Assembly (NCBI GenBank): GCA_023231475.1
Contig: JALJEE010001840.1
Location: 62,001 to 83,358, forward strand
Direction: 5' to 3'
Length of the DNA stretch: 21,358 nucleotides
Origin: Seison nebaliae
Lineage: Eukaryota
Part shown: positions 1,738 to 20,239 of the stretch, piece after piece
How the letters are laid out: each line of letters opens with the position of its first letter
Numbering within the stretch: the first letter of the stretch is position 1
Position numbers and translations under genes: made by a program
Notes under the pieces: model-generated
Database searches by the model: none
Seen by the model: only the letters and a program-made list of their open reading frames with translations
Told to the model about the DNA's origin: nothing

Positions 1738-2230
1738 TTACGTAAAAAATTTCCAATAAACAACCCCAATCAATATGATGATTTCCATAATCAGAATGCA
1801 ATACACCAAAATTTTGTTGCCAAACATTCTTAAAGGAAATTATATGAAAGAACAACAGGGAATAAAAAATTAACCTCATTTTAATTCGATTAGTCAATTT
1901 TTTTGCTCTTCCTAAAGTAGTGTCCGTCTCATGTAACTTTAATTTTCAAAAGAGACATGAGAAAATAATAGAAATATTTTTTAAATTTAACATTCTGTTG
2001 GATATTGGTCAACACTTCTCTCTGTTCGTTTAAATCCGTCATAGTTTCAGCTCCGATTACTTGGTTTGCTTCCGAGTACTGATTTGATCTCGCCACAGAA
2101 TCTTTCATTCGATTCAATACGTTCTCCATATCATCGTCCATATCAGTTCTGGTAACTTCTAAATATTATTTTCATTACGAAGAGATGTGGATAAAAAAAA
2201 TTGACTGGAATCATTTTCAAAAGGATTCAT
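1738..2230 (-). CDS. VTI1B: VTI1B-like Qb-SNARE, about 114 aa; exons 2230-2206, 2158-1992, 1936-1875, 1828-1738 (5' end uncertain)
   Basis: Spliced product MNPFENDSKVTRTDMDDDMENVLNRMKDSVARSNQYSEANQVIGAETMTDLNEQREVLTNIQQNLHETDTTLGRAKKLTNRIKMRMFGNKILVYCILIMEIIILIGVVYWKFFT. It has a SNARE heptad and a C-terminal TM tail resembling VTI1B (NKLLL...LELAILGGLVYYKFF). Confidence 0.8.
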
Positions 2231-2551
2231 TTTCCTTCCTCTTAATAAATCAATAGAGTTTCGTCCTTATGGAAATTTTCAGTAGGAACTTGAACTTTTG
2301 TTGACAGAAAATTCATATGACTTCCCACAATTTATATAAATATCTTCCATTCATAATTTTTTCAAGCTGGGAATTTGAAGAGACTTATTATCGGTAAAAA
2401 CTGTTCTATATTATAAAATATTTCAAACAATAATCGAAATAGAATTAGACTAATCTTTTATGATTAATTTATTATAAATTGACTAAAAATTGATCTGATT
2501 TGGAAAAAAAAATAAATTAAATTATTTGATTCGGGAAATGAATAAAATATA

Positions 2552-3749
2552 TCAGAATTTAAAGTTTCTTGTAAAATCATATTCGATGGTGGGGACTACT
2601 GCTTGAATGAATTTGAGGAAGATGACCATATAGTTCTTAGGTTCGAGTTTCTTTCCACTCTCTTCAGCCATTCCGATCAATTTCTTCATAACATCTGCAT
2701 GTCTGACAGTGAGATTATATTGAATAAATAAATGAAATTAAGAAAATGGAACTAACCGACACGGATGAATAGATAAAGATGGTGGTGATCCTTTTAGATG
2801 GGGATGATTCTCATAAGTCACAGTTCGTTTGACATGATCTTGAGAAATGTCTTCATACATTTGGTCAGGTGTTAACGGTTGTCGATTCTCATCATAACTA
2901 GAAGAAAGTTGAGATTTTCGTAGAATAAGGAAATTAACCCCGTTAACCACATTCGTGGCGTTCGATAATAATTATCATAAGTAATGTTCAAATCGTAAGT
3001 TCGCAAACTCATCGTCGTTTTATTTTCCTCTTTTTCATTCGTCGATTGCGACGTTGTCACTTCATCTTTCTCGTCTTTGTTTTCAACTAAATCGCTGATC
3101 TTTTCATCTACTAACACCTTGAGATAATGGAGATTATTAATTAAATCGAAATAATTTATTATAAGAACTTTTGAATCAACTTCATCCATATACGCTTCCA
3201 TATCATCTGCATCGGCACCTAAATCTTCATCATCATCATCGTCATCATTATTCTGATTATTATCTATTGGTTGGGGTTCATCTTTTTCAATATTTTCGGC
3301 CGCTTTATCTGCTTCGGTTTGGAAACCTTTATCTGATTGGTAATGATGAGTATCGACCCATGCGTCTTCTTCCGATTGATTCCTCTCATTCTCATTCGTT
3401 TCATCATTTTCGTTCAAATAGACGACTTTCTCCTGATTCTCATCGTATTCCATATGACGACATCTCTTGTAACAAGGAACATTTCTCGTAACTAGAAACT
3501 GCTTCTTCTCATCTAAATAACTTTTGGCCTTTGATGGATCACCACTTTTCCACTGCCATGTTGGACAGTGATATACAAGAAAATCACCTGCCTCTTTGAA
3601 CTGAAATGATGTTAATCATATAACAAATGAAGAAACATGAGAGAAACTTCAACTGGAGTGAGCATTCCACTCTCTAAGAATTTCGACGACTGGAGAACAG
3701 GGGTCAACTTTTCAGCCATTTTAGTGGCTGCATTAGATACTAAATGCAT
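2552..3749 (-). CDS. ATG3: Autophagy E2-like conjugating enzyme ATG3, about 334 aa; exons 3749-3648, 3600-3169, 3117-2939, 2897-2757, 2702-2552
   Basis: Motifs [71 protein letters not shown], catalytic SIHPCRHA and C-terminal [18 protein letters not shown]. Four GT-AG introns preserve frame. Confidence 0.97.
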
Positions 3750-4165
3750 TGCTCTTTATATTCACTTTTTGTATCGATTATACTCAAAGACAATTTACTT
3801 GAAATAAAATTATTTATTGAAATATTCCAATCTACTTCTATTGATGAGTTTGGTAACGTGTTAGTGGAAAGAAATTAAGTCATAAAAATATATTTTGTAA
3901 ATACGACAAAAATTGAAGTGGGAAGAATAACTTAAATATTTCCACTGTAAATTAAATTAAACTTAAATTTTGAAAGGTTTATTCCATTTGATTCAATACA
4001 ATCAACTGTAATATGATGATTTCCACGAGAAAAGGTTAATTTAATTATGTCATCAAATCGATTCTCCTCTTTCGATCTACAAGAACGATCCAGATATTGT
4101 TCGATTATTTTGTTAAACAATCTATTAAACTGTTTGATATTTTCATTTGGTTAAGGTCGAACTAA

Positions 4166-4624
4166 ATGACGATAACTGATTTTGAGAAAAACCTTTACCG
4201 CACAATCTTATTCATTAGCGATACAGTCGATATTCAGTTAATAACTATAGTTGTTTGCTCTGTAGGAGTATTAATTACAATAATTTTAATCGTTTATCTA
4301 TTTTGGACATTATGTAAGAAGGACAATAATTGTTGCTATCGATGTACTCATGGAACAAAAAATGCTATCCGGCATAAATCAATGACCATTTTACCTCCAA
4401 TAGACAAAAGTTATTCTGCTCTTGATGATACACAAAGTAAAGGTGACGGTAAGTATGAGACAGTGGATGAGAGGCAAATTAAGGATTCCTTAAATGTCGA
4501 ACCGAGTTATATCGATTTAGAAATGAGATGTCTAAGAGCTGATTTTATCGAACCGTTCATCAATTATTATGATATGAATCCACCATCAAAAATGAAAATG
4601 AAGAAAATGAACGTAACTATGTAA
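4166..4624 (+). CDS. Hypothetical single-pass membrane protein (152 aa) with juxtamembrane Cys cluster and Tyr motifs
   Basis: Hydrophobic ITIVVCSVGVLITIILIVYLFWTL followed by CKKDNNCCYRC. The tail carries YSAL, YETV and YIDL. Confidence 0.7.
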   Translation: MTITDFEKNLYRTILFISDTVDIQLITIVVCSVGVLITIILIVYLFWTLCKKDNNCCYRCTHGTKNAIRHKSMTILPPIDKSYSALDDTQSKGDGKYETVDERQIKDSLNVEPSYIDLEMRCLRADFIEPFINYYDMNPPSKMKMKKMNVTM

Positions 4625-4806
4625 TTGTATCAAAAATATTTTCGTTATTTTTAATCTTTATTAGAATTGAATTATTTATATTAAATTGATAAGACAATGT
4701 CCATTAAATCTAATTTTATTATCACTCTATTGTGAATGATTATGATGAATTTAACAGAGCACATCTACTTAACTTTCATGTTCAATTATATAAAACTAAT
4801 AAAGTT

Positions 4807-5337
4807 TTAATTTTTAATTTGAATAGAACTTTTGACCTGACAAAACCAATATTGGACGTACAGTCTTAAAGGACAACCTGTTAGTAGCAGATCAGTTTCG
4901 AATCCGTAACCAATGGACTAACATAAGAACGAGTAGAAGACGAACTTTTCAAAAGTTATGCAACGTTCCAACTTTTGGTATAAAGATCGAAATTGGTTTC
5001 TAACACAGATAGCACACTTGAATTTAAATGGCTGTCATGCTTGGTTGGTCGACCAACTAATATGACTTCCAATTCTCACGATAACGTTGGATTGTTTTAG
5101 CTTATTGGAAAGTGAACTGGTTGACGTTAAAAACGATTTGGATGGAGCATTCGCATTATTCAATTCTTCTTTATTATTTACAACAGTCGGAGAATTTTTG
5201 GGTTGCTTAGGTACACTAGAACGATACGCTGTGATATCACGATTTAGAGCTGTTCAATTATTTAATTCATTCATGATGTTCACTTGGTTTTCAATGATGA
5301 CTTTGACAATGACAGTTAAAACCACGAGATAAAATAT
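4807..5337 (-). CDS. Possible small spliced orphan gene (partial; start not resolved)
   Basis: Minus-strand open segments LNRDITAYRSSVPKQPK...KQSN, PFKFKCAICVRNQ...YSFL and CPLRLYVQYWFCQ...KN*. They can be joined by intron-like gaps of about 45-54 nt, e.g. 4878-4922 GTTAGT...TACTAACAG. No homology recognised. Confidence 0.3.
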
Positions 5338-7106
5338 CTATTAGTTCATGAATTCAAATGATTACTTCATGAAATGAGATATTCCAGTTCATTGTTGTTT
5401 TTCGATTTAACATAACATGTAACATATAACATTTTTAGTGCACTTAGAGCGTTTAACTCAACGACCTTCTTCATTTCAAATGATTAAATCGACTCACAGA
5501 AAGAATTGGGTTCCATAGGTTGGTTGTACAAGTAGAAGAGGTCAAATTCTTGCCGATATTTTCCATGCCCAAAATTGTCGGAAAAAATGTTATTATCAGT
5601 CTTTTTATGTATGAACATAGCTAAACTTAAATATCCTTTTTAAGTACTGTTCATTACTTTTACTTCTTTATTATATAAGGTAAGTCCATTTAAACATGGT
5701 AAAAAAAGATATACTAGAACTTTTAATAATAAATATAACCAAAACTATTTCGAACCGAAACGAAGCTGCACATACCGTTTAAATTTGGTTTAAAAAAAAA
5801 CAGATAAAAATTAAGTAACGAATTTATTCCCAGATCGAGAAAATATATGCATTAATAACTTTGATTATAAGAAGAGAAAGATGACACTGGCCATAGTCGG
5901 AAATTGAAATGGTGCATATTTATGTTCCATCATCATATATCATATATGATTATATGAGTGAGAGCCTCACCAGTCTTAAATGTGACTTTATATATCAGAA
6001 ATAATCGTTTTTCATCTCATATTCTGTCATACTGTTATTGGAAAAATACTTCTAAAGTAGCATATATCATAGATATGCTGTTTGTTTCAGACAATTATTT
6101 TTAGTGATAAGAATTGTTTAGGTTGTAAATTATAACATTCAAATAAAATATATAAATTTTATGACTAAACCAAAAATTTCTGTTTAACTATTTCATTCAG
6201 ATTGAATGATTATACTCTCTGCTTGATTAGAGAGTCATAATTATTCGTTTAAGATTATAGTCAAGACAGAGAACTTGTAGATGAGGCCGAATGTAACTTA
6301 CAGTTGGACTGGACCTTACCTGCTATTAAAGAATTCATGAAGAAATGTTTTCGGAGTGTATGGGAGTGTATGCGAAATTCGGATGTTCTCATGTAATACT
6401 AACAATAGAAAAACTTTATTTACTAAACACTCCTCGAGAGATAAATAGTTCATCATTTTTCTCCACTCTTATGAACATTTGGAAACATTTAAATAATTTT
6501 GATAGAATTACAATATTTTCAACTATTTGATATGTAAGAACAAAAAATGAGTTTATTTAACTTTTCAATTAGATGTAAGAACACTATTCAAATTCTACGA
6601 TTTATTAAACTTAACATTCTCATCGAATCGCAAGAACATGTCATCTTTTTTCATTTTTTTCCGTTCCTTATTCTTTTCTAGTTTCTCAAATTCTTATCAT
6701 GTTTCGAAGTCAATTGTAAATTATGTAGAATCTTATACATAATCACAAAAATTGATAATATATCCTTACAAATTGGTCAATAAGATCCATTCTCGTCTAT
6801 AGAACTAAATATTCAGAAGTAAATATTCTAAATATCTCAGTCTGTCCATTACAAGAATTTCAATTTCTTTATCAAATCCATTAGTAATGTTTTAGGTTAA
6901 TAAGTTCCGTTTCTATTATTTTCATAACCAGATTAATGAAGAATAAGACGAACAGAATAATAATAATTAGGATCTGAATGGAATATTGAAGGGAAGACAA
7001 TTCGATGTGGATATTTGTTTAATAATCATATATGTCTTCAAGATTATTCGAAAATTAATCGTCCTACTATTATTTTGTTATCCTCTCTGTTTGCGTATTA
7101 ATCATA

Positions 7107-9260
7107 ATGGCGGAACTGCAATGTACAACAGCCGCAGTATTTTTAACAATTTTTTTCACTTTATCTGTCGTTCTTCTTATCGAAGGAATTCTATTATTCC
7201 TTTTGATTTTTATGAAAAAAATGAAAGTTCAATTTTCATGGAAAGGAAGATTTCTCAAACAAACAAAACCATCACTTCATTTAAGTATAATTTTCTCCGC
7301 ACTATTCTCTTTAAAATTGTTCGTCCTCATGAACAGGCCCGAACCATGAAAACGTCACAATTTCATCCGTACCAAATGATGAAAATGGCTTTTATGACAA
7401 CCGCGCTTATCAAACTGACACAACGAAAACCAGAATGACGAATTTAGACGATGGTTCCTAATCATAATTGAATAAATCGTAATTCTAATTTCCTTTTTTG
7501 TGTAGATGATTCAAAAGATGAATCTGAAATTCAACCAAACTTACAACAGGTTCAATTACAGTTGCTAGAATAAATGAAATCATGATTAATTTGTCATTAC
7601 ACATAAAGGATAACGTCATTGAAGAAATTATTCATTTGGATAGTCGCACAACGTTAAGTAACAAAATTTTGTATCACGAACTCGATATAAATAAAGTCTC
7701 CGATTCAACATTAGAGCAGATGGATGGATTGATTGACAAATTTTTAATTGGGAACAAAATAAGGTTCCTAAGCGTAAATTCGTCAAATGGAAACTTAAAG
7801 GAGAAAGATATACTTGTTGCAATGGGAATTGATATTTCGGATGTTCTAAAGAAAACGAATTGTTCAGACAATTTATTTCATTTCCTTCATGAATTTAACA
7901 AGCTTAACAAGTATCCCGTTAATATTATTTTCTCAATTTATAATTAATGTTGCGATTAATTCAGATTACTCTCAAAGTTTTCCGATTTTCTGAATGTATT
8001 ACTCAGGATCTGTTCGAAAAGCAAGAAAGTATGATGCGAAAAAGTCAGTCTCAAGTTGCACTAAAACAAACAATCGATAACAAAGTGAAAGATGATATAT
8101 TAAGTTGTACCAATATAAAATTGACCAATAATTTAGACGAAAGTATGATTTGTTCAGATGTTGAAGAGAATGTAAAACCCTCTCTAATAACTATTAAAAA
8201 TGGATCAGAGGTATATCAAGAAAAAAATCAGGGTAAAGATGAAGATAAAGTAAATATTGCCGAAGACGTAGATAATGGAATTTTTGTTGAAACACTACCA
8301 GAAACTAGAAAGAATATGTCTCCTGCTGTCGAAGGTACTTTAATTGTTAAGAGAATCAGTGATTCTTCAACAGAAAAAAATTTCGAAATGATCGAATCGA
8401 ATTCTCCAGTATCCGATATATCACTCTCTATCAGTATTGATAAAGTTGAAGAATCTTCTCTAAATGAAGTTCGTCTAACCGGTAATTCAAAAGTGGATGA
8501 AGAAACTAATGAAAAATTGAAAGAAATTCCTCATGATTTAACCAATACAAAAAGAAGTTTAGAGGAAGAGTCGGAAATAAATCGATTACTTGAAAAGCAA
8601 GAACAAAAGTTGATTATCAAAGATCAAATTGTAGATAAGAAAAAAGAAACGGATCCTTCAATTACGACAGACATTACTAATGAAATCGAAAGAAAATTAG
8701 AAGTTATTGAAAAAGTTTACGAAAATAAATTGAATTCGAGAGAATGTACTTTGACCAAGAATGATGATAAAATGAAGCATTCCGAAGATGTCGTCAAACC
8801 AAACACCGAACAAGCTGTTGAAGAAATTGATAATAATTCATACAATAGTAATCTAACAGATCTCTCATTATCTTCCGATAACGAAATGTCATTGAATATC
8901 AAAAATTTGTCAACCACAGTTGAAAGACAATTGAAAAAACAGAAAGAAGAGTCATCGAGCCAATCATCAGATTCTTATTGTAAATTAGAAGAAAAAAATC
9001 ATTTAGATGATAAGCGATTGATCAACATGTTTAATGATGATGTCAAAGTTAATGACACAATTTCTAGTAAGAGAGAAGAAGTCGCCAAAATCGCCAAAGA
9101 AAAACGACGAGAACAAGTCAGGCGATTGACAACGGAAATATCGAGACTTTCCTTAACGGAGGAGTCAGAAAATTTAAGAAAACCACTTGAAATATCAAAG
9201 CCGTTTGGTTCTATATCTTCTTTAGAATCGTCCGATTCTTCGATTGGAAACTTAAATTAA
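7107..9260 (+). CDS. Hypothetical 647-aa protein with N-terminal TM anchor, degenerate PDZ-like segment and long acidic tail; exons 7107-7284, 7337-7453, 7506-7549, 7609-7917, 7965-9260
   Basis: Four introns of 47-59 nt join three ORF-track fragments in frame. TM AVFLTIFFTLSVVLLIEGILLFLLIF is followed by basic MKKMK and later GFYDNRAY. NLKEKDILVAMGIDISDV...YPITLKVFR resembles the C-terminal half of a PDZ domain. Confidence 0.65.
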
Positions 9261-9378
9261 TAAAATTATAGATATTTATTAATAAATATAAATGGAATGG
9301 AAATTGAATTTAATAAATTAAAAAGTAAAATGTCAATTTGGGAAAGAAATCTGTAATATTTTGCATAACGTTTAGTCA

Positions 9379-10304
9379 TTAAATGGGCATAGATGACAAA
9401 AGATTCAGAATTGATTGTTGATATAGTTCATTTATATTCTCTGACATGAAATTGTATTGATTCGCTGTTTGCATTTGTTGGAATGTCTGTAAGTTATCAC
9501 TATAATTATTGTCATTAGAAATCCGAATTGTATTTTCACCAATTTCATTTTCTTTGTTTTCTGTCGATAACTCAAATTGTTTCTGGTTGGAACTCATTTG
9601 ATTTAATGTTGATCCGAATGTTGTAGTTAATTGAAATTTGATTCCCAAGTGTTCATCCAACATTTTCGTACACCAAGTGCTAGGAATGAAAATCTCATCT
9701 TTGATATCATCAATCGATTCATTCTCATCTAAACGTTCAATTAGTTCCTTTAAAAAATAAATATAGTGCAAAGATCCATTAACAATATCAACGCGAGAGA
9801 CCCGACGTCGTTTCGTTCCTATTCTCATAGGTAGTACACATTTTAACTCGTCGAAAGCATTATTTAAGATGCCCATTCTTTTCTTCTCTCGGTAATTGGC
9901 CGCTAATCTCTGATTGTGCGTTAGAACTCGTCGTTTCTTTGATGTTGTAGTATCATCATCTACGGATTCCTCAAAATTGATTGCTCGTCGTTTTAAATTG
10001 GGTCTTTGTTCTTCTAAATTTTCAGTTTTCCCATCTATATTTTGGTTTGGTGAAAATCGAATTCCTGAATCATTCCAAGATTGATTAGATACTGAAAAAA
10101 AAGAAATTAAGTTAATGAATATGAGAGATTGTTTAATTTAAATTATAAACCTTTAGGAGAAGTTCCAAGAACTTCTAACTCAAATACACCAACATCATCC
10201 GATTGATTTGACTGATTGAATTTCATCTGCTCATCACATTTCGCTTGGATATTCATAATATCATCATCGCTTATATCATTAGGAAAAGACATAAAATTTT
10301 GCAT
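9379..10304 (-). CDS. Group-A bHLH transcription factor (most like PTF1/Fer3; about 288 aa); exons 10304-10151, 10091-9379
   Basis: QRLAANYREKKRMGILNNAFDELKCVLP...RRVSRVDIVNGSLHYIYFLKEL is a basic-helix-loop-helix domain. A 59-nt phase-1 intron at 10092-10150 links an upstream exon. The subfamily is not certain. Confidence 0.85.
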
Positions 10305-11140
10305 TATCCACTAAAAATTGAAAAGATTAATAATGAAAATAGATATAATTGACACTGGAACGATTTAACTTTTTAAATAGAAATTCTTCTCGCTCTCGTT
10401 CGTCACTTTTCTAGTCATTAAAAAAAAAAAGATAATTTCAATTATCGTAAATTGAGTGAGTTCCAATCGAACGATATTCAATCCAATCCAATTCGATGAG
10501 ATATAACAATTGTGACGAGTAGTTCACTTCTCCTTCCCAAACTCACTTCAATTGAATATTGTTCAATATCAGTGAACTATTGAGATCATTCAACTTCTGC
10601 ATAATTGTCACATAAAATTTCTGACTAATCGGTATAATTGAAAGAGGAAGAAAGAAGGATAGAATGGTCATGAAAAAAAATTTTTTCAATTCAAAATAAA
10701 TTATACCAAAATGATTGTTATTCAGAAAAATTGTTCAAACAAGACAATACCTGAATTTTATTTAATAAATTATTTATAAAATTTTGTATGGAGGCTATGT
10801 GGAACAAATTTTTTGTTCTTTGATTTTTATGAACAAAAATATATATTGGTCGACTTAATGATCATTCTGAAAGAATTCATTCCATACATTCATAAAATCG
10901 TACAATGTTTTTGTTTTTGAACCAGAATATATATAATATAAGGAAACAGATCAAAAATAAATTATGTTAACGTTTAATAAGGTTTACACAATAAATTTAT
11001 TTTAAAAAAATTTCAAAAATTCTCGAAAATAAAATTAATTGATTAATATATGCTGAATGAAGCAGATAGAAATAAGTCTCAATGAAAAATAGGAAATAAG
11101 GAAAATAATCTCAGGAAAATATTTCTCTTTCATTAATAAA

Positions 11141-13783
11141 CTATTGGTCAAAATGAAGAATATTTGAAGACTTTTCAAAAAATTCCAAAGGATCCTTCTT
11201 CGTAATTGGGAATCGACATTTCTTCTCCAAATCTTCAACTAATTTGGACGGTTTGGTTGAATTCGAATCTTTATTTTGCACATTTCTATAATCTTTTAAA
11301 TAGTTGGACGATTCTTGATGAGTTAACCATAATTGGAAAGAATTAACCAAATCTTCAGGTTTCGTTTGTGTTTCGGTAAACTGTTGGAAGGATTCTGTTT
11401 CTTTTTCATTAAAATTCTTCATCATTAAACCTTTACATTTTGATAAAAGGGGATAATTCTTCTCATTCAAATCATTCTCATCATCAATAAATTCCTGATT
11501 CTTTAAATTATAATTATCAATCGCTTTATTAAATCTGGAAATTAGACGATGCTTCAATTCTTGTTGTTCAATCTCACTCAAATTATCATCAGTTTCCTCA
11601 TTTTCTCCAGAAGGCGTCACTTCCATTTTATCGTCATCAGTTGTATTTTCTTCTTTACAATTAGCTGTTACTGGTCGAATTAAATGTTTGAAAATTGTTT
11701 TCCAACTTTGAGTTCGATTCAAATTAATTCTGGATTGAACACGCGAACTCCTTCGAATTTGTTGGACAACATCGTTATTCGAATGATATAGTGCTAATCG
11801 TTCACAACGTTTCTCCGAATTCATAAAGAAATAAATTTGATTTGTTGGTGGCATGGAGGAAGGGAGCATTGCACTTACATCCTCAACTTTTCCATGAGCA
11901 TGAATTGAATGTTGATCAAAAGTATTTTTTGTTTGGAACTTTCGACCACATTTACTACATGTAAATCGATGTTGCTCCGTATAATTTCTTATATAATTCT
12001 TATTCTTTTCGCATCGTGCTATTTCACTAAATTGACGATTATCGAAATTAGCTAAATCCGAATTGTGATCATGGGAATAGACAGTAGATTTCCCAATGGG
12101 AATACGAATTCCACCATAATACTTCCAGTATTTGATACAAGTCAAACAAATCATCTTAATATCATTATTTCCATTGATCAAGAACGGATGTTGTTCTTGA
12201 CTTAGCTCGGAAGATGAATGATGAACCTTTTGACTTATCATATTCAGAAGATGATGAGGACAATTGTACCATGTACCACGTTCAACACACAATTTACAAA
12301 TGAGACAACTATATTTTTGATTGAAAGGAATTGGATTGAAATTTTGACAATGTTGTTCTGGAATAAAAATTTGTTTAAGTTTTCCTTCTTTATTCTTCGA
12401 TTTCCGATGTTTCATTTCAGCATAATGATTCGTCGTTTTCCATAAATAATAATATTCGATAATTGATCTCAACGATTTCCATGGAAGAACATCATTTCTT
12501 ATGGAGAAGAATTCCTTCTTGTAACGTTCAACAGCATCTTCAAATAAATTAGTTTCCCAAATCGACCACGCTTCCAACTCGTCGTGGAATAATCTTGGAC
12601 CAGTTTTAGGAATGAGAATCTTGATCATCTTTTCCACATCATATTCCGCCAAATGTAATATATCATATGTTCGATTTAGAGTTAAATCACGTGAAGCTGC
12701 CGCCAAAGTGAAAGAGGCTGTTGGCAATAAAGGAAATTCACCCGTTGTGTTCACATAAGTCGTTCCATTAGATATTTGTTGTTCACTTTCAACATCATTC
12801 ACTCGAATTCGACAATTCTCTTGTTTCTCTTCTTCTTTCATTTTGACTGATAAGACATGTTGATCCAATGTCTTCTTATTAACCATTTGACTCAAATGAG
12901 TAGTGTCAATAGCTCGTGCATACATACCAATCGACTTTCCTAACATTACACAACGATCGACATGCATATCACTACAATTGTCAGGTTGATCCCAAACCAA
13001 TGTACTAGGATGATATAGTGCATTGCGATAATGTTCCATTTCATCATCTGCATACATTTCAGGGATCTCTGCTTGATATTTCGGTCCAACACGAATTTCA
13101 GATCGATCATTAACTAATGTTTTTAAATGTGGATCATATGTCAATTGAGTGAAGAAAACATGTTGACGATGATCGGATTGCTTAATATGAGGCAGGGGAG
13201 TGCGAATATCAACGAAATCCCAAAGCGATTCCTCGTCATCCAAAGTGAGAACTTGGCATTTCCCTTTTATTCCATCGACTGGTAGACATTGTGATTCACG
13301 ATTGTGAAAAAGTTCTCTGTGTTTCACTTGATATTTTGTTAACTTATCCATATACTTTCTCAAATGAAACGTTTGTTCTTCTTTCTCATCTTTCATCCAC
13401 GATGGAAGTGATCGAATCTTCTCTTCATCATAATCATCCAATTCCTTCTTAATCTCTTCCGTCACATCAAGTACTTTCGATACAGAAATATAATTACCAA
13501 ATATTTGTTTATCTGCATTATTCAATAGTGTTTGAGATAATTCTTCTCGTCTCAAATAAAATGTCAATCTCACTTCATTTGGACCGTTTGAACTTTTTAA
13601 CAGCTCTTCAATTTTACAAATCTTATAAGGTGTAATTGGCGACTCTTCGTAATAAGCGAAATCTCCAATTTTATAAACATTTTCAAATGATTTCTGATTA
13701 TGCTGTTGAGATGGATGATGATGTGACATATTGTTATGATTAGATTGAGGATGCACACCATTATTCAATTCATTCGTTGTCAT
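11141..13783 (-). CDS. MTA1: Metastasis-associated protein (MTA family, NuRD subunit), 880 aa, intronless
   Basis: BAH (YKIGDFAYYE...KIEEL...KHRELF...IKGKC), ELM2 (EIRVGPKYQAEIP, AAASRDLTL), SANT (ELEAWS...LFEDAVERYKKEF...LPWKSLRSIIEYYYLWKTT), degenerate GATA finger (C..C...WY...CLTCIKYWKYYGG) and a C2H2 finger (CSKCGRKF...HSIHAH). Confidence 0.93.
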   Translation of the reverse strand: MTTNELNNGVHPQSNHNNMSHHHPSQQHNQKSFENVYKIGDFAYYEESPITPYKICKIEELLKSSNGPNEVRLTFYLRREELSQTLLNNADKQIFGNYISVSKVLDVTEEIKKELDDYDEEKIRSLPSWMKDEKEEQTFHLRKYMDKLTKYQVKHRELFHNRESQCLPVDGIKGKCQVLTLDDEESLWDFVDIRTPLPHIKQSDHRQHVFFTQLTYDPHLKTLVNDRSEIRVGPKYQAEIPEMYADDEMEHYRNALYHPSTLVWDQPDNCSDMHVDRCVMLGKSIGMYARAIDTTHLSQMVNKKTLDQHVLSVKMKEEEKQENCRIRVNDVESEQQISNGTTYVNTTGEFPLLPTASFTLAAASRDLTLNRTYDILHLAEYDVEKMIKILIPKTGPRLFHDELEAWSIWETNLFEDAVERYKKEFFSIRNDVLPWKSLRSIIEYYYLWKTTNHYAEMKHRKSKNKEGKLKQIFIPEQHCQNFNPIPFNQKYSCLICKLCVERGTWYNCPHHLLNMISQKVHHSSSELSQEQHPFLINGNNDIKMICLTCIKYWKYYGGIRIPIGKSTVYSHDHNSDLANFDNRQFSEIARCEKNKNYIRNYTEQHRFTCSKCGRKFQTKNTFDQHSIHAHGKVEDVSAMLPSSMPPTNQIYFFMNSEKRCERLALYHSNNDVVQQIRRSSRVQSRINLNRTQSWKTIFKHLIRPVTANCKEENTTDDDKMEVTPSGENEETDDNLSEIEQQELKHRLISRFNKAIDNYNLKNQEFIDDENDLNEKNYPLLSKCKGLMMKNFNEKETESFQQFTETQTKPEDLVNSFQLWLTHQESSNYLKDYRNVQNKDSNSTKPSKLVEDLEKKCRFPITKKDPLEFFEKSSNILHFDQ

Positions 13784-14249
13784 ATTATCTTCTCTAATTA
13801 AAATAATAATTTATTGGACAAATGGTAATGATTTTGAAAGATTTAAAGATATTTCTTTAAATTCCCTTTTCTTAATTTCCCTTTCACCAGATTTAGTTCA
13901 AAGAATATAAAGATTTCAAACGGCCGATGTACAAGAAAAATGGAAAACTAAATATTCTTCATATTTCCATCTCTTCTTTTCATGACTTGCTCATTTGTCT
14001 CAAATCACCCTTTTTGTAAAAGTTAAGCGTCGTTAATCGACAAAGCTTATAATCACCGGCACTTCAATTTTACACAAAATAAAACATTCTTTATATAAAT
14101 AACTTCAATTTATCATAGAGATAATGAATTAATGGATTGTTTTAGTTCATTTCCTTCTCAGCAAGGTAAAGATCTATTTTTTTCTCAAAAGTCAAAACTT
14201 TCCTGTTTTCCTCTTTTCCTTATCTATTTTCTCCTTTCTTTCATTACTA

Positions 14250-14627
14250 ATGTTTCCACTCTTTTTGATATTAATCTTCCATCCGCTATCTACTTTCAAT
14301 CCTTTTGAATCAATTGCTAGATCAGATACATCAGTCAACGAATTAAACAAAAATCTTAAATATCCTATTACTCCAATTGACACGAAAGCCATTCCCGTTA
14401 AAGTAAATTTCGAAGGTTCAAAACAAGTCTATCACATGATCAAAGATCGTCCATTTCGAGATATCGTTGTAGACCGCAATAATTCTGAAGCATTACCTGA
14501 AGAAAACAGAGCTCTTAGTTCAAATAGCTCTTATCAAAGAAATTTCGAAGAAAAGTCGAAAGATGATGTTGAACTTTTTTTTATTCAACCTGAAATTGCA
14601 ACAAGTAACATCTCTTTAGATCATTGA
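14250..14627 (+). CDS. Hypothetical protein (125-aa ORF; the 5' part may be intronic, with the true exon starting near 14321)
   Basis: ORF has coding-like composition after about 14321. It is preceded by a long AG-free pyrimidine-rich tract ending ttgctag. No homology recognised. Confidence 0.4.
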   Translation: MFPLFLILIFHPLSTFNPFESIARSDTSVNELNKNLKYPITPIDTKAIPVKVNFEGSKQVYHMIKDRPFRDIVVDRNNSEALPEENRALSSNSSYQRNFEEKSKDDVELFFIQPEIATSNISLDH

Positions 14628-14677
14628 AAGGAAATAATTTTCAATATAAATTTTTTAGAACAATTTTTTGAGGTTTA

Positions 14678-15119
14678 TTATCTTAAGAAATAAATGAGTA
14701 AAATAAATGAAGAAACTAAAAATTTTATGGTAGGTGAATTAATCGATGAATGATTGCAATAAGAAGAGGTGCAACAAAAAAATTCTTGAGATTTGCCTAA
14801 AGTCGTTCCACTTCTTTCCACACAACTTTCCGAACAATGTCGTTTAAAATGAAAGGAACCATCTGGATGATAAGTTACATCTTTCTAAATAAGATAGAAA
14901 TGAATTATAAAAACAATAAGTCTCATTTAGAAGATGAATAACAGAACAATAGTTGTTACAATTAACGACATTGATTTGAGGACGATTGTTCTTGTAAGCT
15001 GCTATGACTCGTCCGTCTGCACATTCGATTTGTGATGTACTATCACATTCGTAACATTTTAATGTATTGAGAAATGGAAGTTGATGAGAAAGCAAAAGAA
15101 ATAGAACAAGTATCATCAT
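14678..15119 (-). CDS. Ly6/uPAR three-finger protein, probably GPI-anchored (127 aa); exons 15119-14943, 14884-14678
   Basis: Signal peptide, then LKCYEC...C...CNNYC...RHCSESC...CCTSSYCN (10 Cys, terminal CCxxxxCN), then a hydrophobic C-terminal tail. One 58-nt intron at 14885-14942. Confidence 0.88.
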
Positions 15120-15380
15120 TCTGAATTGTCTAAACAAAATAACAATAAGTTCCAATTCAATACAATAGACAATCATGTGGGAAGTACCGGTTCGAGATAA
15201 GAATATGAACACAGTACCAATGTGCGATACATTGTTTACTGAATCAATATTTGACAATTTTAATTTATTCAAAATAATTAGTTCAAAATATTCAGTCAGA
15301 ATAAAAATGATTTCTTATTAATTATTTCATCATCTTATCTCAATATTCAATGTTATTATTCCACCTTTCTCTTATCTTTA

Positions 15381-15764
15381 TCATTGAACGTTACAATTTT
15401 TTTGATTCTTCTTTTCCTCCTCGATTTTCTTCTCAATTCTCGATAACTTTTGGAGAACCTTAAACAAATAAAGAAAAAAGTTTAGTGATAATAATAGAAA
15501 AGGTTAACGGTTCTGTTTGAAGGAAAAGTTTTGGACAATAATCGTGAATATACCAATCTGCCATTGACAAAAATTTCAAACGAATGCCGACTTGAGATAT
15601 ATCCGACAATGTTCACATTCTCAAATCTTTCTTCTATGAAACATTTCAATCGTACAAATGTTTTATAGTATATTTCACTTAAATTATTAGTGAGTAGAAA
15701 ATTATGAAGAAAATGATTAAGATGAAAGATATAGAAATAACTCTAGTTCAATTTCAATATTCAT
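15381..15764 (-). CDS. MIEN1: MIEN1/SelW-like Rdx-family protein with C-terminal CaaX (89 aa); exons 15764-15742, 15677-15509, 15458-15381
   Basis: Not in the ORF track. Spliced product MNIEIELDEIYYKTFVRLKCFIEERFENVNIVGYISSRHSFEIFVNGRLVYSRLLSKTFPSNRTVLQKLSRIEKKIEEEKKNQKNCNVQ* carries the Rdx signature FEIxVNGxLVxSxL...FP and ends in CNVQ, like the CVIL of MIEN1. Confidence 0.75.
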
Positions 15765-16444
15765 ATCTCGCAAACTCGTCCAAATTGAGCGAATGAATGA
15801 AAATTTGTTTTTCTTAGGTTAGATTTCTTATACTGAAAATGTCATTGTTAATTCTTTGTGTTTAACAACAGTTCAATTCTATCCCAAAGTAATTCCATCT
15901 ATTTATTTATATTCGTTACATATTTACATATTTGACTTCAACAGTTGAAAAGCAATCATTAATTGTAATGACTTGTGAATAACCTCAGGAATGAAAAAAA
16001 TATGTTCTGAAAAATGTAGAATTTTTTTCGTTACATAAAACCGAACATAAGAAAGAGATTTCCGTCAACGTCTAATGTATAACTTCAATTTTTCAATTAA
16101 GATGTTAGTTATTCCTTTCGCTTTTATCTTATGGACATCACGTCAATCTAGGAAGGAATAGAGAAGATCAATTATTTATTTTAAAATCAAACAATAATCA
16201 TTAGAACTCTAAAAAGGAATTTGTTAATTATTAAAACTGTACTGAAAGAAATTGTACAGTAAATTAAAATATAATAAGATATACTCTGTAAATAATGGTT
16301 TGTATTGAGTGCAATATAAAGTTAACAATATTTATTAATCAAATAATCAACTAAACAAAGAATGAAGAGAAATTGTGAGTTTGTAATAAAATGAAAGGAA
16401 GGTAAATTATTTTAAATTTGAATAACACAGGAATTTGTTGAAAA

Positions 16445-17286
16445 TTAAACATCGAAACATATTGTGCGATCACTGTGAGCCTAAAAGCGAAAAGTTTTAT
16501 GAAAAGAAAAATATGAAGTTCTTATTATAACTTTAAAATTGATCTGTTTACAATCTACTTCGCAAACAGTTCTCCAACATTGTGCGATGGCGCGAATGGT
16601 TTCTACGTCTTTTGTATTTAGCCACATAGCCAATCGTGTTTTCGAACGCTTTTTCGCAAATAGTCCACAAATAAATTGAGTATATTCATCAAACTGATGA
16701 CCAATTAGAGCTAATAACTAAACAAACGACAGTGAAAGATGTTCGAGTGATAGTTAGAAAATAATAACCGAATGTCGCCACCAAACGTCAAACAATTGGG
16801 GTGTTGTCAATAAGTTTGCTTCCATAACACCTCCTTGTCGATTTTCTGGTTTTTCATAAATCGGCTGAATTCCACTGCGGAAAAACATATAATCATGAGA
16901 ATATGGTAATTGGGATGGAACAGGTAAATGCTTGAAAACTCTAAAAGTAAAAAATAATTCTCATGTTTTGAGGAGGAAAGACGAAAGGAAACGTCCAGAA
17001 ATCTTCAACATATTGAACGGATGCTAATTCTAGAATGTTTTCGTCCCAACTTGCCGAATTCAACGATGAATTATAGTACCAGAATGTCCATCGATAAGTA
17101 AGTGGATGATAATTTTGTACACGTCTGAAACTAATTGGTTGATTTTCTCTTTCCTTCGGATACCCGTATGTCGAGATTAGAAATATATGTAAACAGGAAT
17201 ATATTGAGAATAGATTCAACTTTAATAGAGACCTCATTCTGTGTTTCACTGATTGGAGTCTTATATTCTGGCTCTTCCATAGTCAT
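16445..17286 (-). CDS. EIF4E: eIF4E-family cap-binding protein, divergent (about 206 aa); exons 17286-17221, 17153-16993, 16940-16769, 16717-16532, 16480-16445
   Basis: Motifs HPLTYRWTFWY, SWDEN, VEDFW, DYMFFRSGIQPIYE..ENRQGG, DVWW..LLALIGHQF, ICG, RLAMW and FKAH. The first exon is tentative; an unspliced in-frame ATG at about 17237 is an alternative. Confidence 0.9.
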
Positions 17287-17780
17287 TGTAATAATTTACT
17301 GAAAGTATCTTGAGAATAATGAAAATTTGATAAATTCCGGATTATAGAATATGTCTGTTCAAATTACATAAAATCATTTTATGTAAAAAAATAAAAAGAA
17401 ATATTTTGAAGAAATTAATTTTTTCAAAATTTTCCTACTCTGATATAACGCTTCAAAAAATATACTATACATACTTTTAAATTTTAAAAAACGTATATGT
17501 AAAAAAAACTTTTGGCATGTCTTTTTCAATTTAAAGGAAAGAAAATTGAAAGAAATTTAATGATTCCGAATTTAGAAATTCGCAAAAATGTAAAGAGAAG
17601 AATAGAATGTTTAGCCGAAAAGTTTATTAACGAGAACTTTTAAAAGTGTAATTTAATATAATAAAAATGCTCCATGAAACATTTTGTATGAAAACATCGG
17701 CTTAAATTTAAGATAATTTTATAATGACCTAATGACACTGAAGGAGTTTTAGAAAATTATTGATGTAAAATATCAACAAT

Positions 17781-17794
17781 GTTACTAAGACAAC
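17781..17794 (+). promoter_or_regulatory. X-box (RFX binding site) upstream of BBS5
   Basis: GTTACT-AA-GACAAC fits RYYNYY-N(1-3)-RRNRAC and ends about 60 nt before the BBS5 ATG. BBS genes are established RFX/DAF-19 targets. Confidence 0.7.
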
Positions 17795-17853
17795 TTTACC
17801 GACAGCTAAGTGTTAAGTATCACTGGTGAATTTCCAATAATTAATTGTGGTTG

Positions 17854-19264
17854 ATGACTTTCATTGAATTATGGCAAGATCGTGATTTGAGATTCGATCG
17901 ATCGGTCAAGTTTATTTTGAGAAAAAGTCAGTTGAATGACCTAATATAATTCGTAATAGAGAAATCAAATGCCGAACAGGAGAGTTTATTTTGGATACCT
18001 TAAAATCGGTGGAGGATCATCAAGGCAATTCTGGAGAAGAAGGTCTTAACATTCTTACTAAAATTATTATTCATAAAAATTAATCTCTTTTTTAGGTAGT
18101 TTGGTGGTGAGTAGTCTCCGACTAATTTGGTTTTCAAAAAAAGACCAAAAAATTAATTTATGTTATTCTTACGAAGTTGTTTGTGAAATTTTATTACTCT
18201 GTAGCTATTGGTTATAATACAATGATTAGTATGAGTGTCAAAAAGATGGAATCGGTTCGATAGTCAATTTTTCTGATTTTTAATAGTTTATTTATTTTTA
18301 TTTATAGAAAATTCGAGGTTCTTCCGAATCGTTGTATATTATGTGCAAACTAGGAGAGACAAAATATGAATTTACTTTTATTAATTTGGAAGAAGGATCT
18401 CCAAGAATCTTTACTTCTGTTATGTCCGTATTCAAGTTCACTTTTAATGTTTCGAAAAAGATTACTGAAATGTCTTTTGGAAGATCTTATGAATCGAGTA
18501 AATTATATCGAGAAATTAAACTACGATCTGCACTTTTTTATGAAGGACAATTGAATTTATTACCCGATGAAGAAATTTCAAATTCCGTTAGTGGTGTGTG
18601 GAATTTAGCGAATGAAGAAGTTTGAGAACTTTATAAAATTTAACGGAAAAATTCATTCATATACAGGGCAATTTAGGAAAATTTTATATAACCAATATTC
18701 GTATCATTTGGCATGCTGATCATTCTACAGAATTCAACGTCAGTTTGCCATATATTCAAATTTCCAATATTCGTATTCGACAATGTAAATTCGGAAAAGC
18801 GTTGGTAATCGAATCGTTTGTTAGTGAATAATTTTCTATATTCAATTATATTTCCATTAAATTAGCGTCGTCGTTACGTTTTAGGATTTCGAATTGATCC
18901 AATCGAGAAATTAACAAATATTTGTAAGGAGCAAACCAAATTACTAGAAGCATTTCATACATCTCCGATGTTCGGCATAAAGGTTGATTTCAGTGGAGAT
19001 AAAGACGTCGAACTACCACAATGGACGGAAGAGTTAGATGAAGATATTGAGATTGATGAAAAAAAGATGAAATCAGATGCAATAGCGGTTTTCATTTCCT
19101 TTTAAAATGAAAAGTTTCTAATGGAAATAATTAATTGTTAGTCGTATATTACCAATGATTCAACATCCAACACTAAAACACCAGTTTATTGCGAAGAATT
19201 AGGTGTCACTATACAGCAATTGAAAGAAGGATATACAATTGAACAAATTCTACAAATTCTCTGA
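17854..19264 (+). CDS. BBS5: Bardet-Biedl syndrome 5 protein (BBSome), about 338 aa, 9 exons: 17854-17909, 17960-18042, 18096-18161, 18205-18254, 18308-18435, 18484-18619, 18667-18819, 18866-19087, 19142-19264
   Basis: [100 protein letters not shown] and EELG..LKEGYT follow BBS5 colinearly along its full length. Confidence 0.96.
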
Positions 19265-20239
19265 ATTGAAACTTAATTTTACCAGAGAATTTGTAACGGT
19301 TGTTAATGTGTCTTTCGATTTGTCCAATTTATTTTCTAAATGAAATTTAATCGGTTTCTGCAATCTATATAATTGTCCTCTTATTGAACTGCAATTAATG
19401 AAAATTGTGTCATTGTTTTTATGTATACTATAAGCTGGATTGATTTGAAAGAGTTGAATGATAATTAAGAAAACGAACCTTCATGAATATGTCCAAAAAG
19501 ATGATATTTTGGTTTCCGTTCTAATGTCCATTTTAATAGTGTAACACATCCAACGTGATAATTACCACTTGTATAATCACCAATTCCACAAGGTGGTCCA
19601 TGTGTCATAAGGATATCCAACTTCTTTGGAATTTTCAACCAATATTCTTCGATGTTTGCTCTATTCAAACTGAATGCACCATTATGATGTTTTGGAGACC
19701 ATGGTGAACCATAAATACGTATACCATCAATGACTATTAACTCATCAAATAGGAGAATAATATTATGTTTCGCAAATTTTCCTTTCCAACATTGAACTTT
19801 TTCACTTTTGAAAAATGATTTCAATTTTATTTGATCTGTTTTACCCAGACAATACATGTCCATAAAACGATCTCGATTACCACTTATCACAATCTTATGC
19901 TTATGAGGCAATTCGGCAAACCAATTGATAAATTCTTCAATTTGACGAATACTCCCATTGTTCGTGAAATCACCGCAATGTAAAATGAAATCGGTTGGAT
20001 CTTCTACCAATTGGAGTTTCGAATGACGACTATGTGTATCTGATATACATGTAATCGATAACTATTTTAATTTATGAAATGAAATTGGACGAAGAGTAAA
20101 AATTTAAATTAACAGATTTTCCATCTTTTGGACTTACAATATCGCTCTGAGCGATCTTGTCCACTTTCCCTGTGTGTTGACAATAAATTCCGCATAAATC
20201 ATCTGGATAATGTATAATAGTTTTGCTAAAATTTATCAT
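19250..20239 (-). CDS. MPPED2: MPPED1/2-like metallophosphoesterase (about 297 aa); exons 20239-20114, 20061-19479, 19434-19250
   Basis: Motifs CISDTHS, LHCGDFT, LPHKHKIVISGNRD, RIYGSPW, DILMTHGPP, VGC..L, KPKYHLFGHIHE and FIN.S. Confidence 0.88.

Follow-up and report, generated by a model that had tools for sequence, protein, structure and literature searches.

Donor motifs are the most lineage-conserved of intron signals and cluster by kingdom (PMC3033335), and the standard U2-type animal donor is given as (A/C)AG|GU(A/G)AGU (PMC3488318). Here we ask why the introns in one stretch of DNA from Seison nebaliae—a seisonid rotifer described as having a genome of ~46 Mb and compact genes (PMC8351084)—almost always begin with GTT, placing T at the third intron position (+3), and what may have changed in the reading of that position. 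The stretch, referred to below as the window, comprises 21,358 nucleotides (nt) of GenBank assembly GCA_023231475.1 (contig JALJEE010001840.1, positions 62,001 to 83,358, forward strand); its GC content is 27-34% and its animal genes are closely packed. Introns were read from genomic DNA together with protein homology, and all the Seison junctions discussed were inferred in this way within a single 21-kb window.

Thymine at +3 in the donors of the window

The window contains 29 frame-keeping GT-AG introns in nine unrelated genes on both strands, ranging from 41 to 67 nt with a median of 51. At +3, 26 have T, two have C, one has A and none has G. Every donor listed by the first-pass annotation of this DNA (26 GTT, 2 GTC, 1 GTA, 0 GTG) is present in an intron that keeps the frame. 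That annotation spoke of a non-canonical donor code, which holds for the extended consensus, since +3 differs, but not for the introns themselves, which are canonical; being GT-AG and restoring conserved reading frames, they would be U2-type spliceosomal introns. The strict U12-type donor RTATCCTT, as given in PMC3488318, occurs in 0/29. Acceptors number about 14 TAG, 8 AAG and 7 CAG, so that AAG is common, and four TAAY-type branch-point patterns were not enriched over shuffles among the 29 (p 0.14-0.44).

We sorted the introns into three tiers by how their junctions were placed. Tier A (n=14) holds those placed by a spliced protein-to-DNA aligner that carries no donor-context score; it comprises 13 GTT donors and one GTC—a pyrimidine at +3 in 14/14—with 13 of the 14 placed by proteins of other species and one (eIF4E intron 4) by a paralogue from the same species. 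Tier B (n=11) rests on gene identity and reading frame, and tier C (n=4) is a membrane-protein gene without a homologue, into which the single GTA donor of the window falls. For the 15 introns outside tier A, every frame-keeping alternative was enumerated. Within tier B, a purine donor (GTA or GTG) could serve for four: ATG3 intron 2, MPPED intron 1, VTI1B intron 2 and the Ly6 intron. In the worst case, with a purine donor taken at each junction that allows it, 22/29 are still GTT.

For ATG3 and BBS5 the junctions were approached from two further sides. Mapping the deposited BBS5 (P0067) and ATG3 (P0072) proteins exactly onto the window yields 12 introns (41-54 nt), all of them with a single GT-AG reading that is identical to the one annotated earlier; hidden Markov models (HMMs) of homologues from other species, used to rank all frame-keeping GT/GC-AG candidates, put the same junction first in 11/12. 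The exception is ATG3 intron 2, in an acidic stretch, where GTT candidates also ranked top. Protein searches with single exons returned Seison nebaliae records that are 100% identical, namely P0067, P0072 and, for eIF4E, P0192/P0214. Deposited models are not proof, given a doubtful 48-nt intron in eIF4E, and other evidence was therefore used for the junctions.

Composition does favour T in this DNA, and the earlier premise that AT-richness is neutral between A and T at +3 fails on that account: after the 1,894 GT sites of the window, T follows at a frequency of 0.42 and A at 0.23. Intron interiors are 0.47 T and 31% A, and T follows 21 of 40 intron-internal GT sites (0.525). The donors exceed each of these backgrounds. 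For GTT in 26/29, p is 1e-7 against GT sites in the window, 2e-5 against intron-internal GT and 2e-6 against the intron T share; for the 13/14 of tier A the corresponding values are 1e-4, 2e-3 and 4e-4, and the worst case of 22/29 gives 2e-4 against window GT and 9e-3 against intron-internal GT.

Beyond GT itself, +3 is the sole intron position with a strong bias. The 29 introns have A 14, T 8, C 6 and G 1 at +4, and A 13, T 8, G 5 and C 3 at +5; because both positions are mostly A, the T at +3 is not the beginning of a T run. Further in, +6 is T in 17/29, which is not above the intron background, and +6 to +9 are T-rich. Within five long exons compared with codon shuffles, GTA is more depleted (61 vs 75) than GTT (87 vs 96); we read this as general avoidance of TA, and it lends no support to an avoidance specific to GTT.

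Bdelloid rotifers as a matched comparison

The comparison of Seison with other rotifers covers bdelloids. An ATG3 alignment led to 80 metagenome loci, of which the ten closest to bdelloid proteins were considered and eight used, L045 and L046 being near-copies of L044; the remaining 70 were left unscored as intronless, transcript-like or not bdelloid. Three introns of 157-199 nt in the P0078 alignment tail on L044, flanked by exons of 4-8 residues (donors GTT, GTC and GTA), were also left out. In a tree the eight loci group with Adineta, Rotaria and Didymodactylos (support 98/94), and Seison forms a long branch (1.5 for ATG3) of uncertain position.

In four genes, the aligner used for Seison gave 29 bdelloid donors, which occupy 14 intron positions and have A at +3 in 25 cases, G in two and T in two; this purine count of 27/29 is drawn from related rows, and the two GTT donors are a single orthologous intron preceded by AAG. 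The relatedness of the rows makes one locus against tier A the fair test: L044 alone has A in 12 and T in one of 13 donors (Fisher p 7e-7). The match in other respects is close, with a median intron length of 53 nt in bdelloids vs 51 in Seison, an interior T content of 0.48 vs 0.47, and T after background GT sites at 0.40-0.43. Since bdelloids, whose introns match in length and composition, retain a purine at +3, neither AT-richness nor short-intron definition alone explains the Seison donors. The related-taxon check proposed by the first-pass annotation thus sets Seison apart at +3, and of the forms of lineage-specific recognition suggested there, a changed reading of +3 is supported, whereas definition by intron length is insufficient by itself.

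Donors of both groups are GT-AG, belong to short AT-rich introns, have weak -1G and +5G, and most commonly carry A at +4; they part at +3, where Seison has T in 26/29 and a purine in 1/29 (0/14 in tier A). Guanine at +5, which had been reported as lost, is better described as weakened: the 5/29 found in Seison still exceed the 6.5% G of intron interiors (p 0.04). It is already weak in bdelloids, at 13/29 (4/13 in one locus), as is -1G at 6/29. The weakening of the donor is therefore partly older, with the flip at +3 marking Seison. Judged on one window and one matched relative, the switch from A to T is real and strong, and it is apparently unreported: judged by titles and the openings of abstracts, the literature searched contains no paper on donor sequences of Seison or acanthocephalans and none on GTT-dominant animal donors, a large survey being a place where such a logo could sit unremarked, and neither the portions covered of PMC8351084 nor its two supplements deal with splice-site sequences or small nuclear RNA (snRNA).

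How the reading of +3 may have changed

Standard U1 snRNA faces +3 with U, as pseudouridine, and accepts A and G there. The bdelloid pattern of A with rare G fits such a U partner; in Seison T predominates, C is rare and G is absent, as fits a purine partner. The explanation we tentatively place first, at somewhat under even confidence, is that the U1 base facing +3 changed from U to A and that the donors followed. Position +3 would then be read by base pairing, and the predicted U1 recognition sequence of Seison would be ACUAAC, not ACUUAC. In favour of such a change, nine GTA or GTG sites located 38-70 nt upstream of acceptors go unused. One changed base would be enough for the data, as the residual preferences for -1G (11/29, p 0.013) and +4A (14/29, p 0.04)—with p values uncorrected for the several positions tested—can be taken as faint traces of standard U1 pairing. 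The donor carries so little information that the narrow length range of 41-67 nt would likely do much of the work, through intron definition.

The introns themselves are likely old. Counted on human eIF4E, the Seison eIF4E exons begin at residues 75 and 134, which adjoin human intron sites. In BBS5, the first six exon ends lie at complementary DNA (cDNA) positions 56, 139, 205, 255, 383 and 519, and the human boundaries, presumably at 59, 142, 208, 258, 386 and 522, are each one codon further on; the boundary at 208 is in print through the patient variant c.208+5G>A (PMC11889135). We infer that these are old introns rewritten in place. At slightly lower confidence than the U1 change alone, Seison may be an animal in which U1 acquired a mutation opposite +3 and GTA gave way to GTT in ancestral introns throughout the genome, which would be the first case of co-evolution of an snRNA and its splice sites in an intron-rich animal, without the intron loss or donor tightening of Entamoeba. 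If true, the case of an animal with +3 switched from A to T and many old introns retained would mean that one of the core rules of splicing is open to change in a large number of genes with no loss of introns, which bears on whether selective intron loss or co-evolution is at work. Gene-prediction programs trained on other animals may also place donors wrongly in the group to which Seison belongs.

Entamoeba, the one described lineage with U at +3, offers a precedent; its U1 reads ACAAAC, and 88-90% of its donors are GUUUGU (Roy and Bowser, bioRxiv 10.1101/2022.06.08.495308). The likeness to the Seison window lies in GT-AG introns, an AT-rich genome and U at +3 as the rule. The differences are considerable: Entamoeba, a protist poor in introns, has a strict donor of six to seven bases that keeps +5G and has +4U, whereas Seison is an animal whose introns are numerous in the window (eight in BBS5) and in which T is the rule at +3 alone, +4 is mostly A with T in 8/29, and +5G is found in 5/29. 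Donors that mismatch standard U1 across a lineage are also a feature of Saccharomycotina, Giardia and Trichomonas; however, those are strong donors in which +4 changed, a change linked to U6 pairing and METTL16/SNRNP27K, while in Seison +3 changed and +4A persists. Among animals, Fritillaria borealis and Oikopleura have drifted splice-site rules affecting the terminal dinucleotides; Seison keeps GT-AG.

Several points weigh against a changed U1. Compensatory U1 changes are reported only for Entamoeba and Mastigamoeba, with a mixed form in Physarum, and most lineages with atypical donors keep a standard U1 (yeasts, Giardia, Trichomonas, Thecamonas, Mamiellales), although most of these changed at +4 (both from bioRxiv 10.1101/2022.06.08.495308). 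Seison donors, unlike the strict ones of Entamoeba, are degenerate past +3, and pairing with U1 may therefore count for little in them; the traces at -1 and +4 are weak. Permitted distances from acceptors hold 18 unused GTT or GTC sites, and GTT and length alone are therefore insufficient to pick a donor. Moreover, the case comes from one window, with junctions inferred from DNA. No snRNA gene lies within the 21-kb window, and two U1 patterns found no match in viral contigs; in genome contigs they gave seven matches, five of which are standard U1 genes from organisms other than Seison and uninformative on it. As an aside, eukaryotic U1 snRNA genes, as DNA of hosts or bystanders, occur in the bacterial genome bins L001, L002, L003, L005 and L007.

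A possible alternative, to which we give lower though appreciable weight, is a standard U1, with the preference for +3U coming from a diverged U1C, LUC7, PRP8 or SNRNP27, or from an unchanged U6 ACAGA box, whose G would form a wobble pair with +3U and a regular one with +3C where the contribution of U1 has become small. This would suit the pyrimidine found at +3 in 28/29 donors, and the proteins of Seison are very diverged, as the ATG3 branch of 1.5 indicates. The ACAGA box faces donor positions 2-6 and fits GUUUGU (bioRxiv 10.1101/2022.06.08.495308), donor shifts elsewhere occur as a rule without U1 change and track METTL16/SNRNP27K (PMC10581693) or LUC7 (PMC11842720), and in C. elegans the loss of U6 methylation shifted two example donors to GUU sites (PMC11347140). 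However, donors driven by U6 favour +4U and +5G, whereas in Seison +4 is mostly A and +5G is rare, and the effects of METTL16 and LUC7, as far as these sources present them, fall on +4, +5 and -1 rather than on +3. With G as its partner, +3 would favour C, yet T outnumbers C 13 to 1 at +3 vs 3 to 1 inside introns.

It is unlikely that +3 is simply no longer read and has drifted to T, whether through intron composition or as part of a U-rich stretch bound by TIA-1-like proteins. Such drift would draw on the 47% T of intron interiors, the 42-52% of GT sites that are followed by T, and the T-richness of +6 to +9; against this, 26/29 stands above every background (p 2e-5 or less), +4 and +5 are not T-rich, A makes up 31% of intron bases but 1/29 at +3, and bdelloids of the same composition keep A.

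More improbable is that the window is atypical, or some junctions misplaced, in a genome that is GTR overall. The data are DNA only, from one window, 15/29 junctions rest on frame or weak homology, an in-phase consensus GTAAGT is present at MPPED intron 1, and at least one intron in the deposited models is doubtful; but the pattern recurs in nine unrelated genes from both strands, alignment blind to donor context finds 14/14 pyrimidines, GTT stays at 22/29 in the worst case, and five DNA runs from at most two studies, one of them possibly the source of the window itself, match it without a listed donor difference. These five runs span the window as unspliced contigs, two further runs yield no alignment to it, and no joint in the seven coincides with an intron, which speaks neither for nor against the junctions.

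Least probable of all is that the introns are young mobile-element copies (introners) ending in GTT, for although their length range is narrow and three firm ATG3 positions differ from two bdelloid ATG3 introns, the intron sequences share by eye nothing beyond composition and the BBS5 exon ends, each 3 nt short of the presumed human boundaries, look ancestral.

Introns gene by gene and deposited models

All four ATG3 introns are on the minus strand. Three are in tier A with agreement of 4/4 homologues: intron 1 (3601..3647, GTTTCT, 47 nt), which is also the HMM top choice and in the deposited model, intron 3 (2898..2938, GTTAAT, 41 nt) and intron 4 (2703..2756, GTTAGT, 54 nt). Intron 2 (3118..3168, GTTCTT, 51 nt, in frame and stop-free) is in tier B; it is in the deposited model, and homologues disagree over its acidic stretch.

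The eight BBS5 introns, on the plus strand, are all in tier A: 17910..17959 (GTTTAT, 50 nt), 18043..18095 (GTCTTA, 53 nt), 18162..18204 (GTTATT, 43 nt), 18255..18307 (GTTCGA, 53 nt), 18436..18483 (GTTCAC, 48 nt), 18620..18666 (GTTTGA, 47 nt), 18820..18865 (GTTAGT, 46 nt) and 19088..19141 (GTTTTC, 54 nt). The fifth, in frame and stop-free, is the weaker member, being placed by 1/3 homologues, the HMM top rank and the deposited model.

In eIF4E (minus strand), intron 1 (17154..17220, GTTGAA, 67 nt) is in tier B through deposited isoforms P0214 and P0192, with the second isoform using GTCTCT at 17232. Introns 2 (16941..16992, GTTTCC, 52 nt) and 3 (16718..16768, GTTATT, 51 nt) are placed in tier A by P0193, P0194 and P0207, and intron 4 (16481..16531, GTTATA, 51 nt) by the paralogue P0193. 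Both deposited isoforms also splice out an in-frame 48-nt GTT-AG segment (17003-17050, minus strand) that encodes ~16 residues conserved in P0193; either the prediction is wrong, with a preference for GTT, or the alternative splicing is genuine. P0193 is a second eIF4E of the same species, 75% identical, and its deposited model extends into ~210 residues that resemble a dolichol-phosphate mannosyltransferase; the model is probably two merged genes.

The remaining tier B introns are also on the minus strand. MPPED intron 1 (20062..20113, GTTAAT, 52 nt) is set by frame, homology being indecisive, and a consensus GTAAGT lies in phase at 20137, 24 nt upstream of the GTTAAT donor at 20113; for intron 2 (19435..19478, GTTCGT, 44 nt) both candidates are GTT and an MPPED2 match reaches the exon end. 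The first and last MPPED exons gave no useful match in PDB. VTI1B has intron 1 at 2159..2205 (GTCAAT, 47 nt; the sole fitting donor), intron 2 at 1937..1991 (GTTAAA, 55 nt; V-SNARE_C match to exon residue 54/55, with a GTG alternative present) and intron 3 at 1829..1874 (GTTAAT, 46 nt; the sole candidate in frame that yields a hydrophobic tail). The MIEN1/Rdx-like gene has intron 1 at 15678..15741 (GTTATT, 64 nt; the sole candidate from the assumed start, with an Rdx match) and intron 2 at 15459..15508 (GTTAAC, 50 nt; the sole fitting donor). The bHLH intron (10092..10150, GTTTAT, 59 nt) likewise has one fitting donor, with an HLH match, and the Ly6/quiver-like intron (14885..14942, GTTATT, 58 nt) is placed by a QVR match to residue 55/56, with a GTA alternative present.

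The four tier C introns of the membrane-protein gene, on the plus strand, are set by frame only: 7285..7336 (GTATAA, 52 nt), the only GTA, then 7454..7505 (GTTCCT, 52 nt), 7550..7608 (GTTCAA, 59 nt) and 7918..7964 (GTTAAT, 47 nt). The gene had been labelled TM-PDZ; no PDZ domain was found in the two long exons examined. Possible further introns in regions 143-1400, 4000-5650 and 14130-14620, which have no homologues, were left unscored; positions 4750-5650 hold several open frames of 35-90 codons on both strands, three of which were scanned and gave no Pfam match.

In this otherwise intron-dense region the MTA (metastasis-associated) gene, at 11144-13783 on the minus strand, is one 2.6-kb exon; it is ~30% identical to the MTA of other animals and has three GTRAG sites in its coding strand. 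The bdelloid loci L044:5400-12300 and L049:1-7576 share a gene order—RFC3-like, xylose-isomerase-like with introns, RPL37-like, ATG3 and SPOCK/testican-like, with names read from translations—and in two deposited bdelloid models ATG3 is merged with the next gene.

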